Part shown: one piece after another, positions 7,929 to 39,107 of the stretch
Layout: each line of letters opens with the position of its first letter
How positions within the stretch are numbered: position 1 is the first letter of the stretch
Virus record (IMG/VR): IMGVR_UViG_2574180019_000004
Coordinates: 1 to 39,225 of that record
Direction: 5' to 3' (one strand)
DNA from: a virus
Taxonomy: Duplodnaviria; Heunggongvirae; Uroviricota; Caudoviricetes
Length of the DNA: 39,225 bases
Made by a program: the position numbers and the translations under genes
Notes under the pieces: model-generated
What the model saw: the letters and a program-made list of their open reading frames with translations, nothing else
The model's database searches: none
Told to the model about the DNA's origin: nothing

Positions 7929-8710
7929 ACAACGTTTTTACCGCGATACAAAACCGTGACGGAGAAGCCCTTTCTCGCATGTCAGGTTATGAGCATCAGT
8001 ACGTCAACAATGACAATGTGGTGAACATGTCAGCAGAGAGGCTTGTTGATGCCCTTTTCAAACAGCTGAAACAACTGTTTCCGGCGGCAGTGGTAACCAA
8101 CCTGAAGACGCCAGAGCAGGAAGTTGCTGCAAAACAGCAGTGGATTGCTGCGTTTGCCGAAGGGGGAATACGTACCCGTGAACAGGTTTCTGCTGGTATG
8201 CGCCACGCCCGCGCCAGTGAATCTCCGTTCTGGCCGTCGCCAGGGCAATTCATCAAGTGGTGTAAAGACAGCAAGATGGTTCTTGGCGTCACCATTGACG
8301 ATGTGATGGCGGAGTTTCACCGGTACAGCAAGGAAAAAAGTTTATATCCTGGTGGTCCCGAAAGATTCCCGTGGCGGCATCCGGTTATGTACTGGGTCGT
8401 ATGTGATACACGCCGTGCAATGTATCAGCGCCAGCTTAGCGAGATTGAGGTTGAGAAACACGCGCGCAGGCTGCTCGATGATTGGGCGAAAAAGGTGGCT
8501 TCCGGACAGCAGATACCCGATCCGGTGATCAGCATACAGGCAAAGCCAGAGCCCATGAGTACACCTCCGGACACAGGGAGAGACGTTTACCATCCACCAG
8601 GGCGAAGTTTCGGGTGCATGCCTAACGCCGCCACCCTTGGGGGAATAACACCGGCGCAGTGGCTGATGGAGGAATACAGGCGGGGAAAGGCGGCAGGATT
8701 TATCAAGTAA
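7925..8710 (+). CDS. Replication protein P-like (DnaB helicase loader)
   Basis: Matches remembered lambda P segments (SPFWPSPGQFIKWCKD vs lambda RPFLPSPGQFVAWCRE; MRHARAS vs MRVARRQ); GTG start 7925 after GGGAGGA. Confidence 0.85.
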   Translation: MNNVFTAIQNRDGEALSRMSGYEHQYVNNDNVVNMSAERLVDALFKQLKQLFPAAVVTNLKTPEQEVAAKQQWIAAFAEGGIRTREQVSAGMRHARASESPFWPSPGQFIKWCKDSKMVLGVTIDDVMAEFHRYSKEKSLYPGGPERFPWRHPVMYWVVCDTRRAMYQRQLSEIEVEKHARRLLDDWAKKVASGQQIPDPVISIQAKPEPMSTPPDTGRDVYHPPGRSFGCMPNAATLGGITPAQWLMEEYRRGKAAGFIK

Positions 8711-15293: not shown

Positions 15294-15370
15294 TGGCGTG
15301 GCATGCAGGATTCGAACCTGCGACCAACCGCTTAGAAGGCGGTTGCTCTGTCCGACTGAGCTAATGCCAC
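15294..15370 (-). tRNA. tRNA-Arg (anticodon UCU)
   Basis: Minus-strand 77-nt cloverleaf folded by hand: acceptor GTGGCAT/ATGCCAC, D-stem GCTC/GAGC, anticodon stem ACCGC/GCGGT with loop CTTCTAA, T-arm GCAGG-TTCGAAT-CCTGC, discriminator G, encoded CCA. Confidence 0.9.
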
Positions 15371-29308: not shown

Positions 29309-31783
29309 ATGAGACAGGAATGTATACAAGCGGTCCAGCAGGCGGCGCAGCGCACGTTAACGGCGCGAGAAATACAGAACATTGAAGACCGCATTTATCG
29401 AAATATGCGCTCCATTGCTCGTGATGACCCGATGTCGTGGCGACAACTTTCCGAATCAGAACGGTTGTATCGTGCAGCACAATTGGCATCTGAAGAATTA
29501 CAGCGAGAAGCGGCATTAAAGAAACGTCGTGTGGCCCTCACTATAGCCGCACGTCAGAGATTGGATAAATTTATCAATAGCTATCAAGGGGCTGATGGGA
29601 AACTTGGCGCTCTTAACCGTACTATTGCTTTTAATGCAGACGGTAAATCGAATTTCCTCTCTGTTGAATCCAGAACAAAAGCCACCCGTGATTATGCATT
29701 GAGTCAATTGCAGGAGGCATTCGAAGCAGTTGATCCTCGCTTTTTTGGTCTGTTTGAAGATGAAGCGGGCGTACGTGACCTGGTATATGAAATGCGGGGG
29801 CAAAATACTGGCAATGCTAAAGCAAGAAAAGGTGCTAAGGCGTGGAGAGAAGTTACAGAGCTGCTGCGCCGCCGGTTTAATGATGCTGGTGGGGACATTG
29901 GCTATCTCGAAAACTGGGGGATCCCTCAACATCATTCTATGGAAAAGGTTGGGGCAGTATCAAAGGATAAGTGGGTTAGCGATGTTATAGGTAAGCTGGA
30001 TCGCAAATATTATATCCGAGCCGATGGACAACTGATGAACGATGCCGAGTTGTCTTCATTTCTTGGAGAGGCTTATAACACGATCGCTACTGGTGGGCTG
30101 AATAAGCTTACTGATACCGGAATGCGAATTTCCGGCGCACGTGCTAACCGTGGTAATGCATCACGACAGATACATTTCAAAGATGCAGATTCCTATCTGC
30201 AATATCAGCAACTTTATGGCGATCGCTCTCTATGGGAAATCATGGTCGGTCACCTGGAAGGTATCAGTAAAGATATTGCACTGGTGGAAACATATGGCCC
30301 AAACCCCGATCATGTTTTCCGCTCTCTTCTTGATCAGGTGAAGGCAGAAACGGCAACAGCTAACCCGAGTAAAACCGGTAAAGTCGAGCGGCTGGCGAAC
30401 AACACAGAGAATCTGTACAACTTTATTTCCGGAAAGACACAGCCTGTAGCGAATCCGCACATCGCGCGATGGTCTGACAATATCCGCAACTGGCTGGTTG
30501 CCAGCAGACTCGGATCCGCGTTGCTGTCATCGTTCTCTGATCTTGGAACCATGTATCTGTCTGCGAAGGTGACCAACCTTCCAATGAACCAGTTATTCCG
30601 CAACCAGCTTGAAGCTATGGACCCAACGAACCGTACTGAGCTTGCGCGGGCGCGCCGCGCTGGTCTGGCGATGGAATCTCTACTTGGCAGCGTTAACCGC
30701 TGGGCGATGGATAATATGGGGCCGTCTGTGTCTCGTTGGGCTGCAACGGCGGTAATGCGTGCCAGTGGGCTTACAGCATGGTCAGATGCGCACAAGCGCG
30801 CCTATGGCGTAACCATGATGGGAAGCCTGGGAGAAGTAGTGTCACGGACACCAGACCTTCGTAGCCTCGATGACTCTGATTTTCGTATCCTGAAAAGTAA
30901 AGGGATTACTGACACAGACTGGAGCGTATGGAAGCTGGCGCAACAGGAGGACTGGGGGAACGGTAATAATACGATGCTGACACCGGAAAGCATTATGCGT
31001 ATCCCTGATTCAGCAGTTAAACATCTTGGTGAGCCTGAACGCGTGAAATTTGAGGCAATGCGTAAACTGCTCGGTGCCGTAACTGAAGAAGTTGATATGG
31101 CTGTTATTACACCGGGCGCACGTGAGCAGATGTTCGTAGGGTCTGGTCTTCAGCGTGGAACATGGAAAGGTGAATTAACGAGAAGTGTTTTCCTGTTTAA
31201 ATCGTTCCCTATCTCGGTTGTTATGCGTCACTGGTCACGCGCTATGGGTATGCCGTCTGCTGGTGGGCGTGCAGCATATATAGCAACGTTTTTAGCAAGC
31301 ACAACCATGCTTGGTGCTCTTTCCATGCAGATTACTGATCTTATTAATGGGAGAAATCCAAAGGAAATGACCGGTGACCACATGGTTAAATTCTGGATAA
31401 ATGCATTTTTAAAAGGTGGCGGGGCTGGGTTGTACGGTGATTTTCTTTTCTCTGACCACACTAGGTACGGGAGCGGCGCGCTGGCGTCGATGCTTGGCCC
31501 GGTAGCTGGTCTGGTTGATGACGTAGTGAAGATAGCTCAGGGCATACCGCTAAATGCTGTGGAAGGGAAGAGTGAGCAGACTGGTGGTGATCTGGTTAAG
31601 CTGGGGAAGGGGCTGATGCCAGGTGCGAATCTCTGGTACTTGAAGGCGGCTCTCGATCATATGATCTTTAACCAGATGCAGGAGTATTTTTCACCAGGCT
31701 ATTTGCGTAAAATGGAGCAACGTTCGAAGAAAGAGTTTAACCAGACATACTGGTGGCGACCTCAGGATGTCACTCCGCAATAA
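29309..31783 (+). CDS. Internal virion/ejection protein (large)
   Basis: 824-aa ORF with RBS GAGG; last large gene before moron island. Confidence 0.55.
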   Translation: MRQECIQAVQQAAQRTLTAREIQNIEDRIYRNMRSIARDDPMSWRQLSESERLYRAAQLASEELQREAALKKRRVALTIAARQRLDKFINSYQGADGKLGALNRTIAFNADGKSNFLSVESRTKATRDYALSQLQEAFEAVDPRFFGLFEDEAGVRDLVYEMRGQNTGNAKARKGAKAWREVTELLRRRFNDAGGDIGYLENWGIPQHHSMEKVGAVSKDKWVSDVIGKLDRKYYIRADGQLMNDAELSSFLGEAYNTIATGGLNKLTDTGMRISGARANRGNASRQIHFKDADSYLQYQQLYGDRSLWEIMVGHLEGISKDIALVETYGPNPDHVFRSLLDQVKAETATANPSKTGKVERLANNTENLYNFISGKTQPVANPHIARWSDNIRNWLVASRLGSALLSSFSDLGTMYLSAKVTNLPMNQLFRNQLEAMDPTNRTELARARRAGLAMESLLGSVNRWAMDNMGPSVSRWAATAVMRASGLTAWSDAHKRAYGVTMMGSLGEVVSRTPDLRSLDDSDFRILKSKGITDTDWSVWKLAQQEDWGNGNNTMLTPESIMRIPDSAVKHLGEPERVKFEAMRKLLGAVTEEVDMAVITPGAREQMFVGSGLQRGTWKGELTRSVFLFKSFPISVVMRHWSRAMGMPSAGGRAAYIATFLASTTMLGALSMQITDLINGRNPKEMTGDHMVKFWINAFLKGGGAGLYGDFLFSDHTRYGSGALASMLGPVAGLVDDVVKIAQGIPLNAVEGKSEQTGGDLVKLGKGLMPGANLWYLKAALDHMIFNQMQEYFSPGYLRKMEQRSKKEFNQTYWWRPQDVTPQ

Positions 31784-31792
31784 GGAACAACA

Positions 31793-32206
31793 ATGAAGGA
31801 ATTATTGCTGTTATCGGTATTTTTGATATCCGCTTGCTCGACATCCTATGATGTTTATGACGGTGTTGATAAGGCATATTGCGACAAAGTTAAAATGGAT
31901 TTTTCTCTTGCCAAGACGGCGAAGGATAGTTGTATTGATCACTACGTCAAGACTTATACCAAGCCAGCATCATCGGCATCTGATATTGCTGAAGGTGCTG
32001 TGTTTGAGTGTAACAAGGTGATATCCATCGCAGCGAGTTCTTCATACGATGCTGCTGTATGTGCAATGGCTGAAAGAAACGGCATGTCAGTGCAAAAAGT
32101 TAATAGCATGATAAACAGTAATGACGAAGCCAAAATAAGAACTGATATCAGCTCGGTGAAAAAAGATGCCATGAACAGAGTTGTAAAATATCAGTCATCT
32201 TTATAA
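31793..32206 (+). CDS. Lipoprotein (moron; candidate superinfection-exclusion factor)
   Basis: Signal peptide with lipobox MKELLLLSVFLISAC-S; 137 aa; followed by palindrome and terminator. Confidence 0.7.
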   Translation: MKELLLLSVFLISACSTSYDVYDGVDKAYCDKVKMDFSLAKTAKDSCIDHYVKTYTKPASSASDIAEGAVFECNKVISIAASSSYDAAVCAMAERNGMSVQKVNSMINSNDEAKIRTDISSVKKDAMNRVVKYQSSL

Positions 32207-32207
32207 G

Positions 32208-32219
32208 TCGTGACATGTC
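32208..32219. repeat. Palindrome GTGACATGTCAC (copy 3 of 3)
   Basis: Exact copy, immediately followed by terminator hairpin. Confidence 0.6.
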
Positions 32220-32243
32220 ACAGGCCGCAAAAGCGGCCTTGTT
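32220..32243 (+). terminator. Rho-independent terminator after lipoprotein gene
   Basis: aggccgc-aaaa-gcggcct followed by tgtttt. Confidence 0.65.
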
Positions 32244-32263
32244 TTAACGAATGCCACCGCCCG

Positions 32264-32950
32264 TCAGAAGAACCCTGCTTTGTCGTTGATGTACTCCGCG
32301 TGCGTCTGGATATCACGCAGGCATTTGTTCACACCGACGATGTAGCAGAACATGGTGGTCAACTCCGCCGCCGCGCCCGATACGTCGTGCCCGTCTTCCT
32401 GTAACTGGTTCAGCAGATTCATCAGCAGTGAGTTCTCCGTCAGGCCGAGAACACCAGACGGCGAGTGAATCAGACTGCGGTAGCCGGGCTTTAGTGGGGC
32501 GCTGTAGGTTTTGTTCTCTATCTTCATTGCCTGCATCACTGCTGATGCTGTGGCGTTGGCTACCTGGTCGGCAACCATCTTTATGCGTTCTTCTTGCGGG
32601 AGCGAGTTTTTAATGTAACTTCCGGTGCGGCGGATCTGAGGAAGAACCTCACCTGTAACCCATTTACGAAAGCGGTATGGGATAGTGCCTGGTGTCACCG
32701 CATCGCGGCAGCGGAGGATCAGTGTGTAGAGGCCTGACTCGTTGATAATATTGGTTTCGCCTTGACGGCCTAAGTTAAATTTAGCCCTTTCATCATCATC
32801 AAGAGATTTTATTGACATAGTGGGGTTTGTCAGTTGAAGAGCTTTAATAACGTCTTTGGCAACAAACCAAGGATTTCCATCAATAACAATGGCTCGAATG
32901 GTTGCTTCTGATTCAAAATGAAAAACAGATGGGGTTACGTTAGCAGTCAT
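32264..32950 (-). CDS. Bro-N domain antirepressor-like protein
   Basis: Start at internal ATG (MTANVTPSVFHFESEATIRAIVIDGNPWFVAKDV = Bro-N signature) with RBS AAGGTGA; C-terminal approx 70 aa paralogous to the small gene at 34096-34353. Confidence 0.75.
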   Translation of the reverse strand: MTANVTPSVFHFESEATIRAIVIDGNPWFVAKDVIKALQLTNPTMSIKSLDDDERAKFNLGRQGETNIINESGLYTLILRCRDAVTPGTIPYRFRKWVTGEVLPQIRRTGSYIKNSLPQEERIKMVADQVANATASAVMQAMKIENKTYSAPLKPGYRSLIHSPSGVLGLTENSLLMNLLNQLQEDGHDVSGAAAELTTMFCYIVGVNKCLRDIQTHAEYINDKAGFF

Positions 32951-33231
32951 AGTGATCACCTTTGTAGTTAGGTTAATCACCACTACCGACGCCAATCGGT
33001 TGGTGGTGAACTGTGCAGGGTTGGCGTAACCGGCTACAAAGGACCCGGCGCACCTTTCGGTGCCCCCACACAGCCCACCATAGAATAGGTGCGCTTTACA
33101 CATAAAAAAACCGCTTATGCGGCATATGTGCCTCTGTAGTAATCCGGGACGCCAATCCCGGCACTGGATTTTGCCAGTGCCCGATTACTATGGCACAAGA
33201 GGAGTGCGATGTAAATTTACCGTAAAGGTAA
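32951..33231 (-). promoter_or_regulatory. Structured 5' leader / candidate small RNA upstream of Bro-N antirepressor
   Basis: Hairpin 32977-33009 (12-bp stem, loop ACGCCAAT); complementary TTGGCGT at 33021-33027; hairpin 33050-33063; terminator-like ccgc-ttat-gcgg + A-run (33104-33122); three-helix element 33136-33191 with loop ACGCCAAT again; candidate -35 TTGATT / -10 TATCAT on minus strand. Confidence 0.4.
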
Positions 33232-33344: not shown

Positions 33345-34073
33345 ATGGAAGTTTTCTGGATAGTTGTTGGTGTGGTTGCGGTGATTATTTACGTTATCAA
33401 CCAGAACAAGACTAAGATCTCTGATCGTACGGTCGTTAATCATAACAAAACGATAAAGACCGAAGATGGGGAGATAACGATTAATCGTACACAGGTGATA
33501 GAACACACCTCTACTCAGTTTCAAAAAACTGGAGGTAATGCGCCTAATATTTCCGCACCTCCTGCTTATGATAGTGCGGTAATCCAGACATATTATAAAC
33601 AGCAGGAGTTAGCAAAAGAGAGGCAACTGATTCAGCCAAAGCCGTTTACAGCTGAGATTCCACCTGGAGTGTCAACGCGTCCGGCATATCATGGAAGATT
33701 CCCTGGTGATGACATATCGTCTCAGTCATCTAAAAAAGCACCTCAGGCAATATCAGAGCCAGCAAGAATACCTTCTGTATCGCCGCCAAAAGAAGAATCA
33801 GCTAACAGAGTTTCAAGTGGTAGCAAGCAGTGCTTGCGATGCAGAATAAACCTTCCATATGAAAAATTCAGGAAATCGTCAAAAAATCCAGATGGATTGA
33901 CTAAATGGTGTGCAAGGTGTCTCGATGGCCCAAAGAATACACGCCATATGAAGTGGTGCCCAATTTGTAATGTCCGCAGAAAACGAACCAGCTTTTACCC
34001 TAATAATCAAAATGCGGACGGCTTAATGGCATGGTGCAAAACGTGCTGGGATGAGCACAAAGCGAAACGATAG
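33345..34073 (+). CDS. Membrane-anchored tandem zinc-ribbon protein (unknown function)
   Basis: N-terminal TM helix (VFWIVVGVVAVIIYVI) followed by basic NQNKTK; S/P-rich linker; two repeated modules KxCxRC...NPDGLxxWCxxC (CLRC...WCARC and CPIC...WCKTC); RBS GAGGAAAAG. Confidence 0.65.
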   Translation: MEVFWIVVGVVAVIIYVINQNKTKISDRTVVNHNKTIKTEDGEITINRTQVIEHTSTQFQKTGGNAPNISAPPAYDSAVIQTYYKQQELAKERQLIQPKPFTAEIPPGVSTRPAYHGRFPGDDISSQSSKKAPQAISEPARIPSVSPPKEESANRVSSGSKQCLRCRINLPYEKFRKSSKNPDGLTKWCARCLDGPKNTRHMKWCPICNVRRKRTSFYPNNQNADGLMAWCKTCWDEHKAKR

Positions 34074-34097
34074 GCCGCTCTTGCGGCCTTTAAATTT
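34072..34097. terminator. Intrinsic terminator shared by convergent genes
   Basis: ggccgc-tctt-gcggcc followed by tttaaattt. Confidence 0.55.
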
Positions 34098-34548: not shown

Positions 34549-37200
34549 ATGACGGTCTCAACCGAAGTTGACCACAACGAATACACTGGTAACGGAGCTA
34601 CGACATCATTTCCGTATACCTTCCGTATTTTCAAAAAATCCGACCTGGTTGTTCAGGTGTCTGACCTGAACGGGAACGTAACAGAATTGGTTCTGGATAC
34701 TGACTACACAGTAACCAATGCTGGAGGATATAATGGCGGTAATGTAATTCTGTCGAAGGCGTTGGCTAACGGTTATCATATTTCTATATCACGAGAGCTC
34801 CCGGTTACGCAGGATACTGATTTGCGTAATCAGGGTAAGTTCTTCGCTGAGGTACATGAAGACGCGTTCGATAAACTGACAATGCTTATTCAAAAGTGTT
34901 TTTCATGGATGAGGTTAGCACTTATAAAACCAAGCATTCTGGCTAACTATTATGATGCAAAAAATAATAAGATATCAAATCTAGCAAATGCCACTGACAG
35001 AAACGATGCTGTCAATAAAGGTTATGTTGATGATCTTTTTACTGGAGGTGTAACGCCTACACCTAACAGCGCTAAAAACGATATTTTTACAAATCACCAA
35101 AGAAAGATTGTAGCTACGATGCCGCTTCTTTTTCCTGAATATGATGCGATTATGGCTGCTAACCCGTCAGCAACTTATATGTATCCTCAAGGATTCTGCG
35201 TTAGCGAAGATTTGATATACATCACTTATCCATTTGAGCCTAAACAGACGAATAATGTCGTCGCAGTATTTAACATATCTGGTATTTATCAAGGTTATTT
35301 CTATGTTCAGGCTGGCGGCCCAGGCTTCGCTGCTGAAGGAATCGTGGTTACGTCAGACTATGGCCCCAAAAAAATGTTTGTTGGTCACACAAACGGAATA
35401 CTGCGTGAATTTAATATGGAGGGGGCATTATACGGAAGCAATCTGCCTCTTGTACAAAACCATGATGTTGGATTATTCAACCAGTTCAGCTACAGAAGAG
35501 GTATATGGCTCGTTGAGCAGAATGCGCCAGAAGTAGGACAGAAAATCACAAGAACTGTACTTGCAGTGTTCGACAGTGGTTTCAATCGCCTGTCAACTAT
35601 AACGCTGCCGTTACATGATGTTGGGTATGTAACTAAAAGCACCTCACCTTATGCGCCTTATTTCAACAAGCGTCAGGGTATTGCGGTAGGTGATAACTAC
35701 TTTGTCTGCGGCTATGGCGGCTTCATAGCTGATGGGGCAGGAAGCGCAGGATATAACGAATATCAGGGCAGCAAAGTTTTTAACCCTGACGGTACAAAGC
35801 GAACTGAATCAATGCTTCATCCTCAGGCCATGATGGATTTAATGAAAGCCGCAGGATTGAACGTCACTCGCATAGAAAATGAAGGCGTTTGTGTTTCTCA
35901 GGATGGAAAATCCATTTATTCACTTTACATTCATCAGGAAAGAACTGGCTCTGAACCTTACAATTCAGGTTTGGTTATTTTCGAAGATTTCTCCACTAAT
36001 AAAGATGCTATCGATTTTACACCTGCATCCAGGCTTTACCGCGGATTTGATATCGATCACGCGAGCATTGGGGTATATCCCCGTAGTGCGAAGGGGATTG
36101 TTAACCCTGTAGATGGTACGTTGTTCACTAACATGACTGAAATTCTTCGCTATATGCAGGAGATGAGTCAGAAGGCATTTAATTTTTACACAGGGACTGT
36201 CAGCATTGCTGATATATCTGGCGTGGCAATCCCTTCCAGCACATATGTTGAAATACTGAATGCGAATAATCAGACTTTTATAGTCAACTATTATTCATCT
36301 GATAGTGGCATTAGTTATTTGGTTGCAACTAATCCTTCTGGTGACTTTGTATTTGTGCGCCAGCGACCGGCACAGTGGGCATCTAACTTAACCATTCAGC
36401 AAAACGCAGATCCTGATACAAACCAATTAAACCGCATCACTGCATCATCATATGCCGGTGCAACTACAAACTCTCAGAAAATATTGGTCCTTGACCAGCA
36501 GGCTACAGCTAGCGCAAATAGCTTGGTATTGGGCGGTAGTTCTTCTGTGTTTAGGTCTGCCACCACGGTGGATATTGCATGCAACAGCGACCCGACAGCA
36601 TTGGGAGGAACCATACGCTGGCGGTTTTATGATACAGGTCTTCGCCCGTTTGCTGACAATACCTATAATTTTGGTCAGGCATCGTTTCGTATTAAAGACG
36701 CCTACTTTGCAAATGCCCCAACCGTTTCATCAGATGCCACGCTGAAAACCAATCCCGAGGCAATATCAGATTTAAGTGAAATGCTTTCTTCTGATAGAGA
36801 CAGCATTCTTGATGCCTGGGGCGATATTTCTGTTGTGGCGTATCGATGGCTCGACGCTATATCCATGAAGGGCGATGGTGCCAGATGGCATTTTGGCGTC
36901 ATGGCTCAGCAGGTAAGAGATGTATTCCTGGCGCACGGAATTGATGGAACCAGATTTGGCCTTCTTTGCTATGACGAGTGGGACGATATTTTTGAGCCGG
37001 TAATCGCGACTAAAGAGATTACCGATGCGTCTGGTGAGTTGGTCACCGTCGAATATGACACCGGAGAACAGAGGCTGGTTAAAAAAGCGGGTAGTTCATG
37101 GGGCATACGGCCTGACCAGTGCGCTTGGCTTGAGGCTGCATATCAGCGCCGCCGATGCGATCGTATTGAAGAGCGACTCGAACTATTGGAATCAAAATAA
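34549..37200 (+). CDS. Tail fibre / tailspike with T7 gp17-like N-terminal adaptor and C-terminal intramolecular chaperone (S74-like) domain
   Basis: 883 aa; N-terminus resembles remembered T7 gp17 N-terminal domain; C-terminal approx 150 aa (from DATLKTNPEAISD onward) resembles endosialidase-type auto-cleaving chaperone. Confidence 0.8.
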   Translation: MTVSTEVDHNEYTGNGATTSFPYTFRIFKKSDLVVQVSDLNGNVTELVLDTDYTVTNAGGYNGGNVILSKALANGYHISISRELPVTQDTDLRNQGKFFAEVHEDAFDKLTMLIQKCFSWMRLALIKPSILANYYDAKNNKISNLANATDRNDAVNKGYVDDLFTGGVTPTPNSAKNDIFTNHQRKIVATMPLLFPEYDAIMAANPSATYMYPQGFCVSEDLIYITYPFEPKQTNNVVAVFNISGIYQGYFYVQAGGPGFAAEGIVVTSDYGPKKMFVGHTNGILREFNMEGALYGSNLPLVQNHDVGLFNQFSYRRGIWLVEQNAPEVGQKITRTVLAVFDSGFNRLSTITLPLHDVGYVTKSTSPYAPYFNKRQGIAVGDNYFVCGYGGFIADGAGSAGYNEYQGSKVFNPDGTKRTESMLHPQAMMDLMKAAGLNVTRIENEGVCVSQDGKSIYSLYIHQERTGSEPYNSGLVIFEDFSTNKDAIDFTPASRLYRGFDIDHASIGVYPRSAKGIVNPVDGTLFTNMTEILRYMQEMSQKAFNFYTGTVSIADISGVAIPSSTYVEILNANNQTFIVNYYSSDSGISYLVATNPSGDFVFVRQRPAQWASNLTIQQNADPDTNQLNRITASSYAGATTNSQKILVLDQQATASANSLVLGGSSSVFRSATTVDIACNSDPTALGGTIRWRFYDTGLRPFADNTYNFGQASFRIKDAYFANAPTVSSDATLKTNPEAISDLSEMLSSDRDSILDAWGDISVVAYRWLDAISMKGDGARWHFGVMAQQVRDVFLAHGIDGTRFGLLCYDEWDDIFEPVIATKEITDASGELVTVEYDTGEQRLVKKAGSSWGIRPDQCAWLEAAYQRRRCDRIEERLELLESK

Positions 37201-37297
37201 GACCAAGTTTAGGTAATTATTATCCGTAAATGGTTTATTGTGTATGATGGACCTCATCTTCTAAGGGGGTTTTTATGCACAATAAACGGTGGTTAAT

Positions 37298-37997: not shown

Positions 37998-38616
37998 ACA
38001 ATTCCAGCGAGCTGCTGGTATTAGCGAGGCGCTGGCCGCACGCTGGTTCTCGCATATAACTTCTGCGATGAAAGAGTTTGGTATCAGCAAACCAGAAGAT
38101 CAGGCAATGTTTATTGCTCAGGTCGGGCATGAGTCTGGAGGTTTCACCCGGTTGCAGGAAAATTTCAACTACAGCGTCAGCGGACTGGCTAACTTCGTTC
38201 GGGCTGGGCGTCTCACTCAGGGACAGGCCAACGCATTGGGGCGACGCGCAGGCGAACCACCATTGCCACCTGAGCGCCAGAGAGCGATTGCCAATCTGGT
38301 GTACAGCAAACGCATGGGCAACAATGCTCCTGGCGATGGCTGGAACTACCGTGGGCGCGGACTTATCCAGATTACCGGTTTGAATAACTATCGTGACTGT
38401 GGAAACGGCCTGAAAGTGGACCTGCTGGAAAATCCTGAACTGCTGGCGCAGGACGAATACGCGGCTCGAAGCGCGGCGTGGTTCTTCTCCAGCAAATGCT
38501 GCATGAAGTATACCGGAGATATTGCACGTGTAACTCTGCTTATCAATGGTGGCCGGAACGGCATTGATGACCGGCGCGCGCGATACATCACTGCCAGTAA
38601 GGTGCTGGCGGTATGA
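37987..38616 (+). CDS. Endolysin, glycoside hydrolase family 19 (chitinase-like)
   Basis: Start at internal ATG ([11 protein letters not shown]) after GAGG; GH19-like motifs [12 protein letters not shown] and [16 protein letters not shown]. Confidence 0.8.
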
Positions 38617-39107
38617 TCTGGGCATTCGCAAAAGCATACTGGAAACAGTTGGTTATCATGGCGATGCTTGCTGTTCTGGTCATATCAGGAGTTGTAGCCT
38701 GGAATGCACACGGCAGTCGTCAGTACGACGCCGGGTATGCGCAGGCACAGGAAGATCAGAAACAGGCTGATGATAAGGCCAGGTCACAACGTGATCAGGA
38801 GAAAACACAAATTGAACGTGAAGCACAATCCCGTATCGATGTGGCGCGTGTTGATGCTGAGCATGCTAATGCCGCTGCTGACAGCATGCGCGCCGAGCTT
38901 GACAAAACCAAGCGACTCGCCGAACACTATACCGGATCTTTCCCCACTGGCACGCCAGCCAGCAAGGTCATCGGTGTGCTCGCCGACATGCTTGAAGAAA
39001 GCAACCGAGTTTACAACGCAACAGCAGCTGAGGCTGAAAAGTATCGGATTGCAGGAGAATCCTGCGAACAGCAATACGATTCACTGAAGAAGCAAAAATC
39101 GTGGTAA
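38613..39107 (+). CDS. i-spanin (Rz-like)
   Basis: N-terminal TM helix then charged coiled-coil; ATGA overlap with endolysin stop; contains embedded +1-frame lipoprotein ORF. Confidence 0.7.
38839..39087 (+). CDS. o-spanin (Rz1-like lipoprotein) embedded within Rz gene
   Basis: Alternate-frame ORF with lipobox LLTAC followed by Pro-rich sequence; exact start (38839/38854/38863) uncertain. Confidence 0.55.
   Translation: MWRVLMLSMLMPLLTACAPSLTKPSDSPNTIPDLSPLARQPARSSVCSPTCLKKATEFTTQQQLRLKSIGLQENPANSNTIH

Follow-up and report, generated by a model that had tools for sequence, protein, structure and literature searches.

The 137-aa lipoprotein encoded at positions 31793-32206 on the plus strand is one allele of a swappable cassette that occupies the last position of an epsilon15/phiV10-like ejection-protein operon. 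The gene is real and accessory, and it is marked by a low GC content and a patchy distribution among related phages. The position in which it sits is a newly described slot, in which unrelated small envelope proteins replace one another between exact borders. The most likely role of the lipoprotein, which we put forward tentatively, would be an accessory one in phage exclusion, exercised in the envelope at a step after adsorption.

The lipoprotein gene at the end of the late operon

The window, by which we mean the whole 39,225-nucleotide stretch of DNA that was analysed, is a complete epsilon15/phiV10-like (Uetakevirus) E. coli prophage. Over the stretch tested it is 100% identical to the chromosomes of the dog isolates P4 and FP4. 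The prophage runs from an integrase gene (208-1464) to a lysis cassette that contains two holins, a GH19 endolysin and a DUF2514 Rz-like gene. Inside the prophage, a gene for tRNA-Arg(TCT) is encoded on the minus strand (15294-15370), with the terminase region on one side and the portal region on the other. The last genes of the late operon encode a T7_gp14-family protein and then internal virion (ejection) proteins of 837, 600 and 824 aa. The gene for the last of these (29309-31783, plus strand) matches phrog_684, a virion structural protein. Its stop codon is followed after a gap of 9 nt by the ATG of the lipoprotein ORF, and the location straight after the internal virion genes that had been proposed in an earlier note on this DNA is thus confirmed. 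The Shine-Dalgarno sequence AAGGAA (31782-31787) stands 5 nt before the ATG and overlaps the TAA stop (31781-31783) of the ejection-protein gene. The GC content of the lipoprotein ORF is 39.1%, against 49.3% for the window.

Downstream, a small palindrome GTGACATGTCAC and a strong intrinsic terminator (32209-32245, plus strand) close the late/ejection operon. A terminator scan gives a stem of 7 bp with 6 GC pairs (32222-32239) that is followed by TGTTTT, and the local RNA fold of the region has an energy of -19 kcal/mol (z = -2.0). The palindrome/terminator block is conserved in loci that carry other alleles, phiV10 included. Because the terminator is common to all alternative alleles, it belongs to the operon and not to the lipoprotein gene. 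The earlier note had credited the gene with a terminator of its own; one does follow it, but it is shared. The term moron, also used there, fits in part. The deviant GC and the absence from close relatives such as phiV10 are those of a classical moron and of an accessory gene, whereas no promoter of its own, as a classical moron would have, was found and the terminator is shared. No promoter-like sequence was found on the plus strand from 31000 to 31792, the ~790 nt upstream of the gene, in a consensus scan that could miss weak or non-canonical promoters. Likewise, no promoter was found upstream of a Providencia homologue on the strand of that gene. At the 3' end of the ejection-protein gene, a third-position (synonymous-site) conservation profile revealed no embedded element with strong conservation. 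Since no promoter of its own was found and its start is coupled to the late operon, expression of the lipoprotein in the lysogen, where exclusion pays most, is not evident.

This arrangement raises the question of a late function in the lytic cycle of the phage itself. The lipoprotein might set the timing of lysis, shield progeny from triggering by debris or vesicles, or block secondary adsorption (lytic conversion). The 9-nt gap, the Shine-Dalgarno sequence laid over the upstream stop, the missing promoter and the operon terminator right after the gene would all suit such a function, and the coupling is equally tight in a divergent Cedecea prophage, with 3 nt from the stop to the start of the ORF. 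T5 Llp, too, is a product of the lytic cycle. However, a complete lysis cassette with two holins, the GH19 endolysin, Rz and an embedded Rz1 is present elsewhere in the window. The proteins that alternate in the slot are unrelated and differ in topology, so that no single lysis or assembly role is conserved among them, and there is no phage lytic cycle that the plasmid-borne and island-borne homologues could serve. We therefore consider a late lytic role improbable.

The lipoprotein is not itself the o-spanin of the phage, as the window has its own Rz and embedded Rz1 (38839-39087). Searches of the 137-aa protein against the spanin PHROGs gave E values of 0.076 or higher and, where an alignment was shown, it covered the signal peptide only.

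The tailspike gene (34549-37200) is not adjacent to the lipoprotein gene, and the location next to receptor-binding genes that had been noted earlier does not hold. A distance of 2.3 kb and three genes separate the two, namely a Bro-N anti-repressor-like gene, a gene for a 242-aa protein and a gp19-like gene. The Bro-N gene (32264-33103, minus strand) has a longest ORF of 279 aa compared with the 228-aa RefSeq product in identical sequence (L016, 20565-21251), and its true start is uncertain. The 242-aa gene (33345-34073, plus strand; phrog_6762, no function assigned), with the Bro-N and gp19-like genes as its neighbours, represents a second accessory gene; its GC content is 43% and it has its own terminator (34072-34089). 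The N-terminus of its product is hydrophobic, and the C-terminal part contains two Cys-rich repeats with a weak resemblance to endonuclease VII, HNH or Lar Zn-ribbons. In the interval that follows the tailspike gene (37200-37289) there is no O-antigen-modifying gene and the holin genes come directly; the same place holds oac in phiV10 and an Acyl_transf_3 gene in the Cedecea prophage.

A hypervariable slot after the last ejection-protein gene

The slot was surveyed in 80 IMG/VR loci that encode an 824-aa protein 82-100% identical to that of the window, and the first downstream ORF was taken in 79 of these (L019-L097). In 78 of the 79 loci this ORF encodes a transmembrane (TM), signal-peptide or lipoprotein product, and the remaining locus is interrupted by an IS insertion. 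The ORF starts no more than about 40 nt past the stop of the ejection-protein gene in 78 loci, mostly at 6-15 nt. The occupants fall into 8 unrelated clusters. The most frequent are a 41-57-aa TM family (37 loci) and a 45-49-aa two-TM family (20 loci). The 137-aa lipoprotein is found in 8 loci and a 102-aa secreted relative in 2 more. The others are a 101-aa TM protein (4 loci), a 103-aa TM protein (3 loci), a 126-aa lipoprotein that is unrelated to the 137-aa one (2 loci), a 128-aa multi-TM protein (1 locus) and a 115-aa secreted protein with Gly/Thr repeats (1 locus). No known function was found for any of the slot alleles.

The borders of the cassette are exact. In an alignment of the loci, identity extends to TAAGGA (31781-31786), the conserved part of the stop/Shine-Dalgarno region and the upstream border of the cassette, and it resumes at CGTGACATGTCACAGGCCGC...GCGGCCTTGTTTT (terminator), whatever ORF lies between. 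TAAGGA is common to loci with 46-aa, 57-aa and 137-aa alleles, and column identity drops from ~0.9 to ~0.3 immediately past GGA. The cassette proper is the ORF, with the palindrome and terminator as its downstream border. The alleles are spread over backbones whose ejection proteins are 84-100% identical. The slot of phiV10, for example, holds a 46-aa two-TM protein (p21) and no 137-aa lipoprotein. Like the 137-aa lipoprotein, p21 and the other slot alleles are small envelope proteins that use the same stop/Shine-Dalgarno overlap and the same terminator, but in sequence and topology they are unrelated to it, with the exception of the 102-aa signal-peptide protein. The lipoprotein allele itself occurs together with several different tailspike receptor-binding domains, which rules out a link between this allele and the tailspike type.

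In many relatives the slot holds two consecutive genes, first a 57-aa two-TM ORF that starts with GTG or TTG and then a 98-aa multi-TM gene (phrog_3075). The pair stands before the shared terminator in E. coli E2865 (L015, 3085-3576), where the 57-aa ORF is absent from the RefSeq annotation, and in about 33 IMG/VR loci. The stretch from the slot to the Bro-N gene is also mosaic. In E. coli VE-V11-M (L014, 3276-4344) it contains a YafO-family toxin gene and an adjacent 108-aa gene, and further relatives have different small genes there.

The slot is limited to small envelope proteins, and unrelated families turn over in it between precise borders. As a pattern read from sequences, this points to an accessory function driven by conflict rather than to a structural or lysis function. 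A search of the Uetakevirus literature found no mention of this slot.

A small lipoprotein family with a predicted helical hairpin

The N-terminus of the 137-aa protein, MKELLLLSVFLISAC, has Lys2, an uncharged h-region and the lipobox L-I-S-A-C with Cys15 and with Ser at position +2, in agreement with a PROSITE PS51257-type rule. The signal peptide comprises residues 1-14 (31793-31834), up to L-I-S-A, and the lipobox Cys15 codon is at 31835-31837. The rule asks for Lys or Arg in the n-region, an uncharged h-region and the lipobox [LVI][ASTVI][GAS]C with the Cys at residue 15-35. When it was applied to the 1303 start-to-stop candidates of at least 40 aa in all six frames of the whole window, six places matched. 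In only two of the six is the h-region truly hydrophobic and the gene credible, the 137-aa ORF and the embedded o-spanin. The latter is an Rz1-type lipoprotein (38839-39087, plus strand) that is encoded out of frame within the DUF2514 Rz-like gene (38613-39107). The lipobox and a residue other than Asp at +2 are kept in all nine family members examined, down to 26% identity. A lipobox that every homologue keeps at such divergence is no chance match, and together with the ORF and the rule this upholds the earlier description of a 137-aa lipobox protein. The only hydrophobic stretch of the protein is the h-region of its signal peptide, and no segment reaches the TM threshold in a hydropathy scan. 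According to the Lol rule, a lipoprotein without Asp at +2 is sorted to the outer membrane, so the missing Asp suggests this destination for the predicted lipoprotein. Very probably the protein is a periplasmic lipoprotein with an outer-membrane anchor. It would be processed through Sec, Lgt and Lsp and would then be sorted to the outer membrane, and its periplasmic domain of ~120 residues is expected to form a disulfide-stapled, all-helical bundle.

The expected fold comes from AlphaFold2, which confidently predicts the E. coli protein to be all-helical (pLDDT 86.7), with helices at residues 24-55, 62-72, 74-96, 100-106, 109-116 and 119-136. The prediction for a 26%-identical Providencia protein (pLDDT 86.3) has a near-identical hairpin and next helix, while its two last helices are fused. 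Among the PDB fold matches, no structural relatives of the model were found. All members of the family, down to 26% identity, have four invariant cysteines with a spacing of 16, 24-25 and 16 residues (CX16C-X24-25-CX16C). This twin CX16C core (Cys30, Cys47, Cys73 and Cys90; 31880-32062, plus strand) lies on a predicted antiparallel helical hairpin, whose two arms comprise residues 24-55 and 62-96. The residue numbers of Cys30 and Cys90 add up to 120 and so do those of Cys47 and Cys73, and on an antiparallel hairpin this fits two inter-helix disulfide staples, C30-C90 and C47-C73. The 102-aa secreted relative shares the central hairpin (hhalign probability 92%) and keeps the inner Cys pair only, which supports the same pairing.

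The lipoprotein family is very small, orphan and previously uncharacterised. The unannotated phrog_8691 matches the protein over its full length (residues 1-137 of 137, E = 1.6e-91, PHROGs), and all seven diverse family members tested match it as well. The gene is carried by 22 of 5426 complete E. coli genomes, and a tblastn search of 50,697 deposited phage genomes gave no match. It has so far been seen only in prophages and IMG/VR contigs. A collection of 5.8 billion proteins contains 17 clusters, nearly all of them 95-99% identical and from E. coli, Enterobacter or Citrobacter; the outlying clusters are one at 82% and a Cedecea protein at 54%. Only 6 clusters match in an exhaustive HMMER search of 1.8 billion representatives, and a scan of 185,579 species-representative genomes returned one fragment only. 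The 137-aa lipoprotein has no significant match in Pfam or NCBIfam and matches none of the families of PADLOC-DB, even at E <= 10. No paper was found that mentions the lipoprotein accessions, phrog_8691 or phiV10 p21.

Relatives of the lipoprotein keep the same place in prophages of other lineages. In the Cedecea prophages the ORF of the 54%-identical homologue begins 3 nt after the upstream gene ends. That gene encodes an ejection protein of 848 aa with only 25% identity to the 824-aa protein of the window. A metagenomic homologue with 26% identity again ends a module of T7_gp14, SLT, 573-aa and 855-aa proteins. Between the E. coli and Cedecea lineages the lipoprotein (54%) is thus far more conserved than the ejection protein next to it (25%). 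This argues against direct binding to the ejection proteins and speaks for a conserved component of the host as its target.

The family is also found on other kinds of mobile elements, so that prophages, islands and Col3M plasmids all carry it. The Providencia/Morganella homologue P0020 is located in integrase/AlpA/DUF3987/YfjJ islands, between the core genes and variable cargo. The cargo beside it includes GajA/GajB (Gabija), type I and type III restriction-modification systems and a DruE-like helicase, a neighbourhood that amounts only to guilt by association. In three such islands on Providencia and Morganella chromosomes (L006-L008) an identical 139-aa homologue is present at 8001-8420; their defence cargo consists of Gabija with type I restriction-modification, of type III restriction-modification with SIR2, and of UvrD-like and DruE-like helicases, respectively. 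The P0024-type homologue is 142 aa long with about 29% identity and is found on 2.4-4.0 kb Col3M plasmids of Proteus and Providencia (NZ_CP135992.1 and NZ_CP066834.1, which are L017 and L018); it is also present in L009-L011. It appears to be the sole protein gene common to these plasmids. Metagenomic concatemers carry the P0024-type gene, one of them together with qnrD.

Carriage on prophages, islands and Col3M plasmids is also what one would expect of cargo that benefits the host in ways unrelated to phages. Such a protein could provide periplasmic immunity to a bacteriocin or a T6SS effector, or it could be an envelope-stress or serum-resistance factor like lambda Bor. The family is well conserved across hosts and, as a small periplasmic protein with probable disulfides, resembles many immunity proteins. 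Nevertheless, a cognate toxin gene was not found nearby in any of the contexts examined, and in Pfam, NCBIfam and the PDB the protein matches neither Bor nor any family of immunity proteins. Host-benefit cargo of this kind would also leave unexplained why the slot stands at the end of the ejection operon and why its content is restricted to envelope proteins. We give this explanation a low probability.

Receptor masking or post-adsorption exclusion as possible roles

The earlier note had compared the protein with T5 Llp and the Cor proteins. Likenesses exist. T5 Llp is a phage lipoprotein that is very similar in its signal peptide and lipobox (LLSAC versus LISAC) and has an accessory envelope function; database annotation describes it as a lytic-cycle product that blocks FhuA. 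Cor of HK022, phi80 and N15 is a prophage-borne lipoprotein, as is the 137-aa protein, and is annotated as excluding FhuA-dependent phages. A kinship with them is not borne out, however. The T5 Llp precursor has 77 aa versus 137 aa here, Cor is likewise 77 aa long, and the lipoprotein is thus about twice their size and predicted to be all-helical. The hhalign alignment of T5 Llp with the family profile covers residues 2-18, the signal peptide, only, and that of Cor, with a probability of 32%, is also restricted to the signal peptide; the mature parts are dissimilar. No T5 Llp chain is among the PDB fold matches listed for the lipoprotein model, and an extra tblastn search with T5 Llp added nothing. 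The gene settings differ, too. T5 llp is divergent from and abuts the receptor-binding protein gene oad, and cor sits downstream of the tail-fibre gene in siphophages, while the lipoprotein gene abuts an ejection-protein gene.

Receptor masking of the Llp/Cor type would mean that the lipoprotein inactivates a primary or secondary outer-membrane receptor and so blocks adsorption or irreversible binding of its own or of heterologous phages. A phage-borne, accessory gene for a predicted outer-membrane lipoprotein would suit this, as it does for Llp and Cor. Its conservation, which exceeds that of the ejection proteins, agrees with a conserved target in the host, and carriage on plasmids and islands fits protection from heterologous phages. 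The evidence on the other side begins with the missing similarity to Llp and Cor beyond the signal peptide and with the difference in size and predicted fold. Uetakeviruses adsorb via O-antigen-specific tailspikes, and the same lipoprotein allele accompanies different tailspike receptor-binding domains. Most of the other slot alleles are tiny, predicted to span a membrane (presumably the inner one) and would be unable to mask an outer-membrane receptor, and no receptor-binding gene is adjacent to the lipoprotein gene. Specific support for receptor masking in the manner of Llp and Cor, as the earlier note had suggested, is therefore wanting, and we think it doubtful at best.

We tentatively favour exclusion after adsorption instead. 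Once incoming phages have adsorbed to the O-antigen, the lipoprotein would disturb a later step, either the penetration of outer membrane and periplasm or the assembly of the trans-envelope conduit for DNA delivery. The O-antigen receptor of its own phage would not be masked. The action would parallel that of P22 SieA at the inner membrane, or that of TP-J34 Ltp. Three observations lend this indirect support: a hypervariable slot with envelope proteins only, the equivalent place of P22 sieA, and homologues beside defence genes. In addition, the same family keeps the slot position in prophages with a 25%-identical ejection protein (Cedecea and the metagenome), and the spanins of the phage are encoded at another site in the window. 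Three points speak against the favoured view. No promoter was found for a gene that is coupled to the late operon, the conservation above that of the ejection proteins suggests a target in the host, and no family member is linked to phage exclusion by homology, with Pfam, NCBIfam and PADLOC searched.

The best precedent for exclusion, by analogy, is P22 SieA. In P22-like prophages, sieA lies after gene 16, the last ejection gene, and before gene 9 for the tailspike (PMC10883804). It is present in only some relatives, and the three types of SieA are ~25% identical to one another (PMC10883804). SieA blocks DNA delivery via the gp16/gp20 conduit at the inner membrane, and escape mutations are found in gp16 and gp20 (PMC10883804). 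Both SieA and the 137-aa lipoprotein are thus encoded by a temperate podophage in the same position, from the last ejection-protein gene to the tailspike gene. In contrast to the predicted soluble helical domain of the lipoprotein, whose gene has no detected promoter, SieA spans the inner membrane several times and has a promoter of its own, PsieA. The two have no sequence relation, and the 137-aa protein, which is without a TM domain, is not a SieA. The same paper also cites the lipoprotein TP-J34 Ltp, which blocks DNA injection (PMC10883804). Ltp, a helical and membrane-anchored lipoprotein, binds the conduit-forming tape measure protein of the incoming phage. This Streptococcus thermophilus prophage protein is the closest analogue of the mechanism proposed here. 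It differs from the 137-aa lipoprotein in its Gram-positive host and its tandem HTH-like repeats, and no sequence or fold match between the two was found.

Other small envelope proteins of phages were compared as well. T4 Spackle (Sp) is a small, secreted, helical protein of the periplasm that halts the incoming phage at the cell wall. Unlike the 137-aa protein it is not a lipoprotein, and identity with it was rejected, as the match to PF25676 is located over the region of the signal peptide and, at 10.9 bits (E = 0.74), stays below the cut-off of 27. An inhibitor of a virion lytic transglycosylase was also considered. This idea is weakened, as the 837-aa protein of the window is without a Pfam SLT match; such a match is present in the Cedecea and metagenome homologues of that protein. 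The lipoprotein model has no fold match to Ivy, MliC or Spackle.

In a wider scheme, the slot might be a dedicated, recombination-bounded hot spot in which each of at least eight families is a distinct inhibitor of podovirus genome delivery for one envelope layer. The lipoprotein would then be a new fold for the outer-membrane/periplasmic stage, and Morganellaceae islands and Col3M plasmids would have borrowed it as a stand-alone defence. We regard this larger picture as speculative and, taken as a whole, unlikely.

For a second podophage lineage, the slot adds a compact and precisely bounded set of at least eight candidate envelope proteins that are unrelated to one another. Among these proteins, only the 137-aa lipoprotein type is also present on plasmids and in defence islands, and it is a plausible candidate for an exclusion factor. 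If it does not exclude phages, it is an ordinary orphan prophage lipoprotein. If it does, it would represent a new structural family of outer-membrane exclusion factors, and escape mutants would provide a genetic handle on the passage of epsilon15-like phages through the outer membrane and periplasm. Phage exclusion would also account for the retention of this gene by minimal Col3M (qnrD-type) plasmids.
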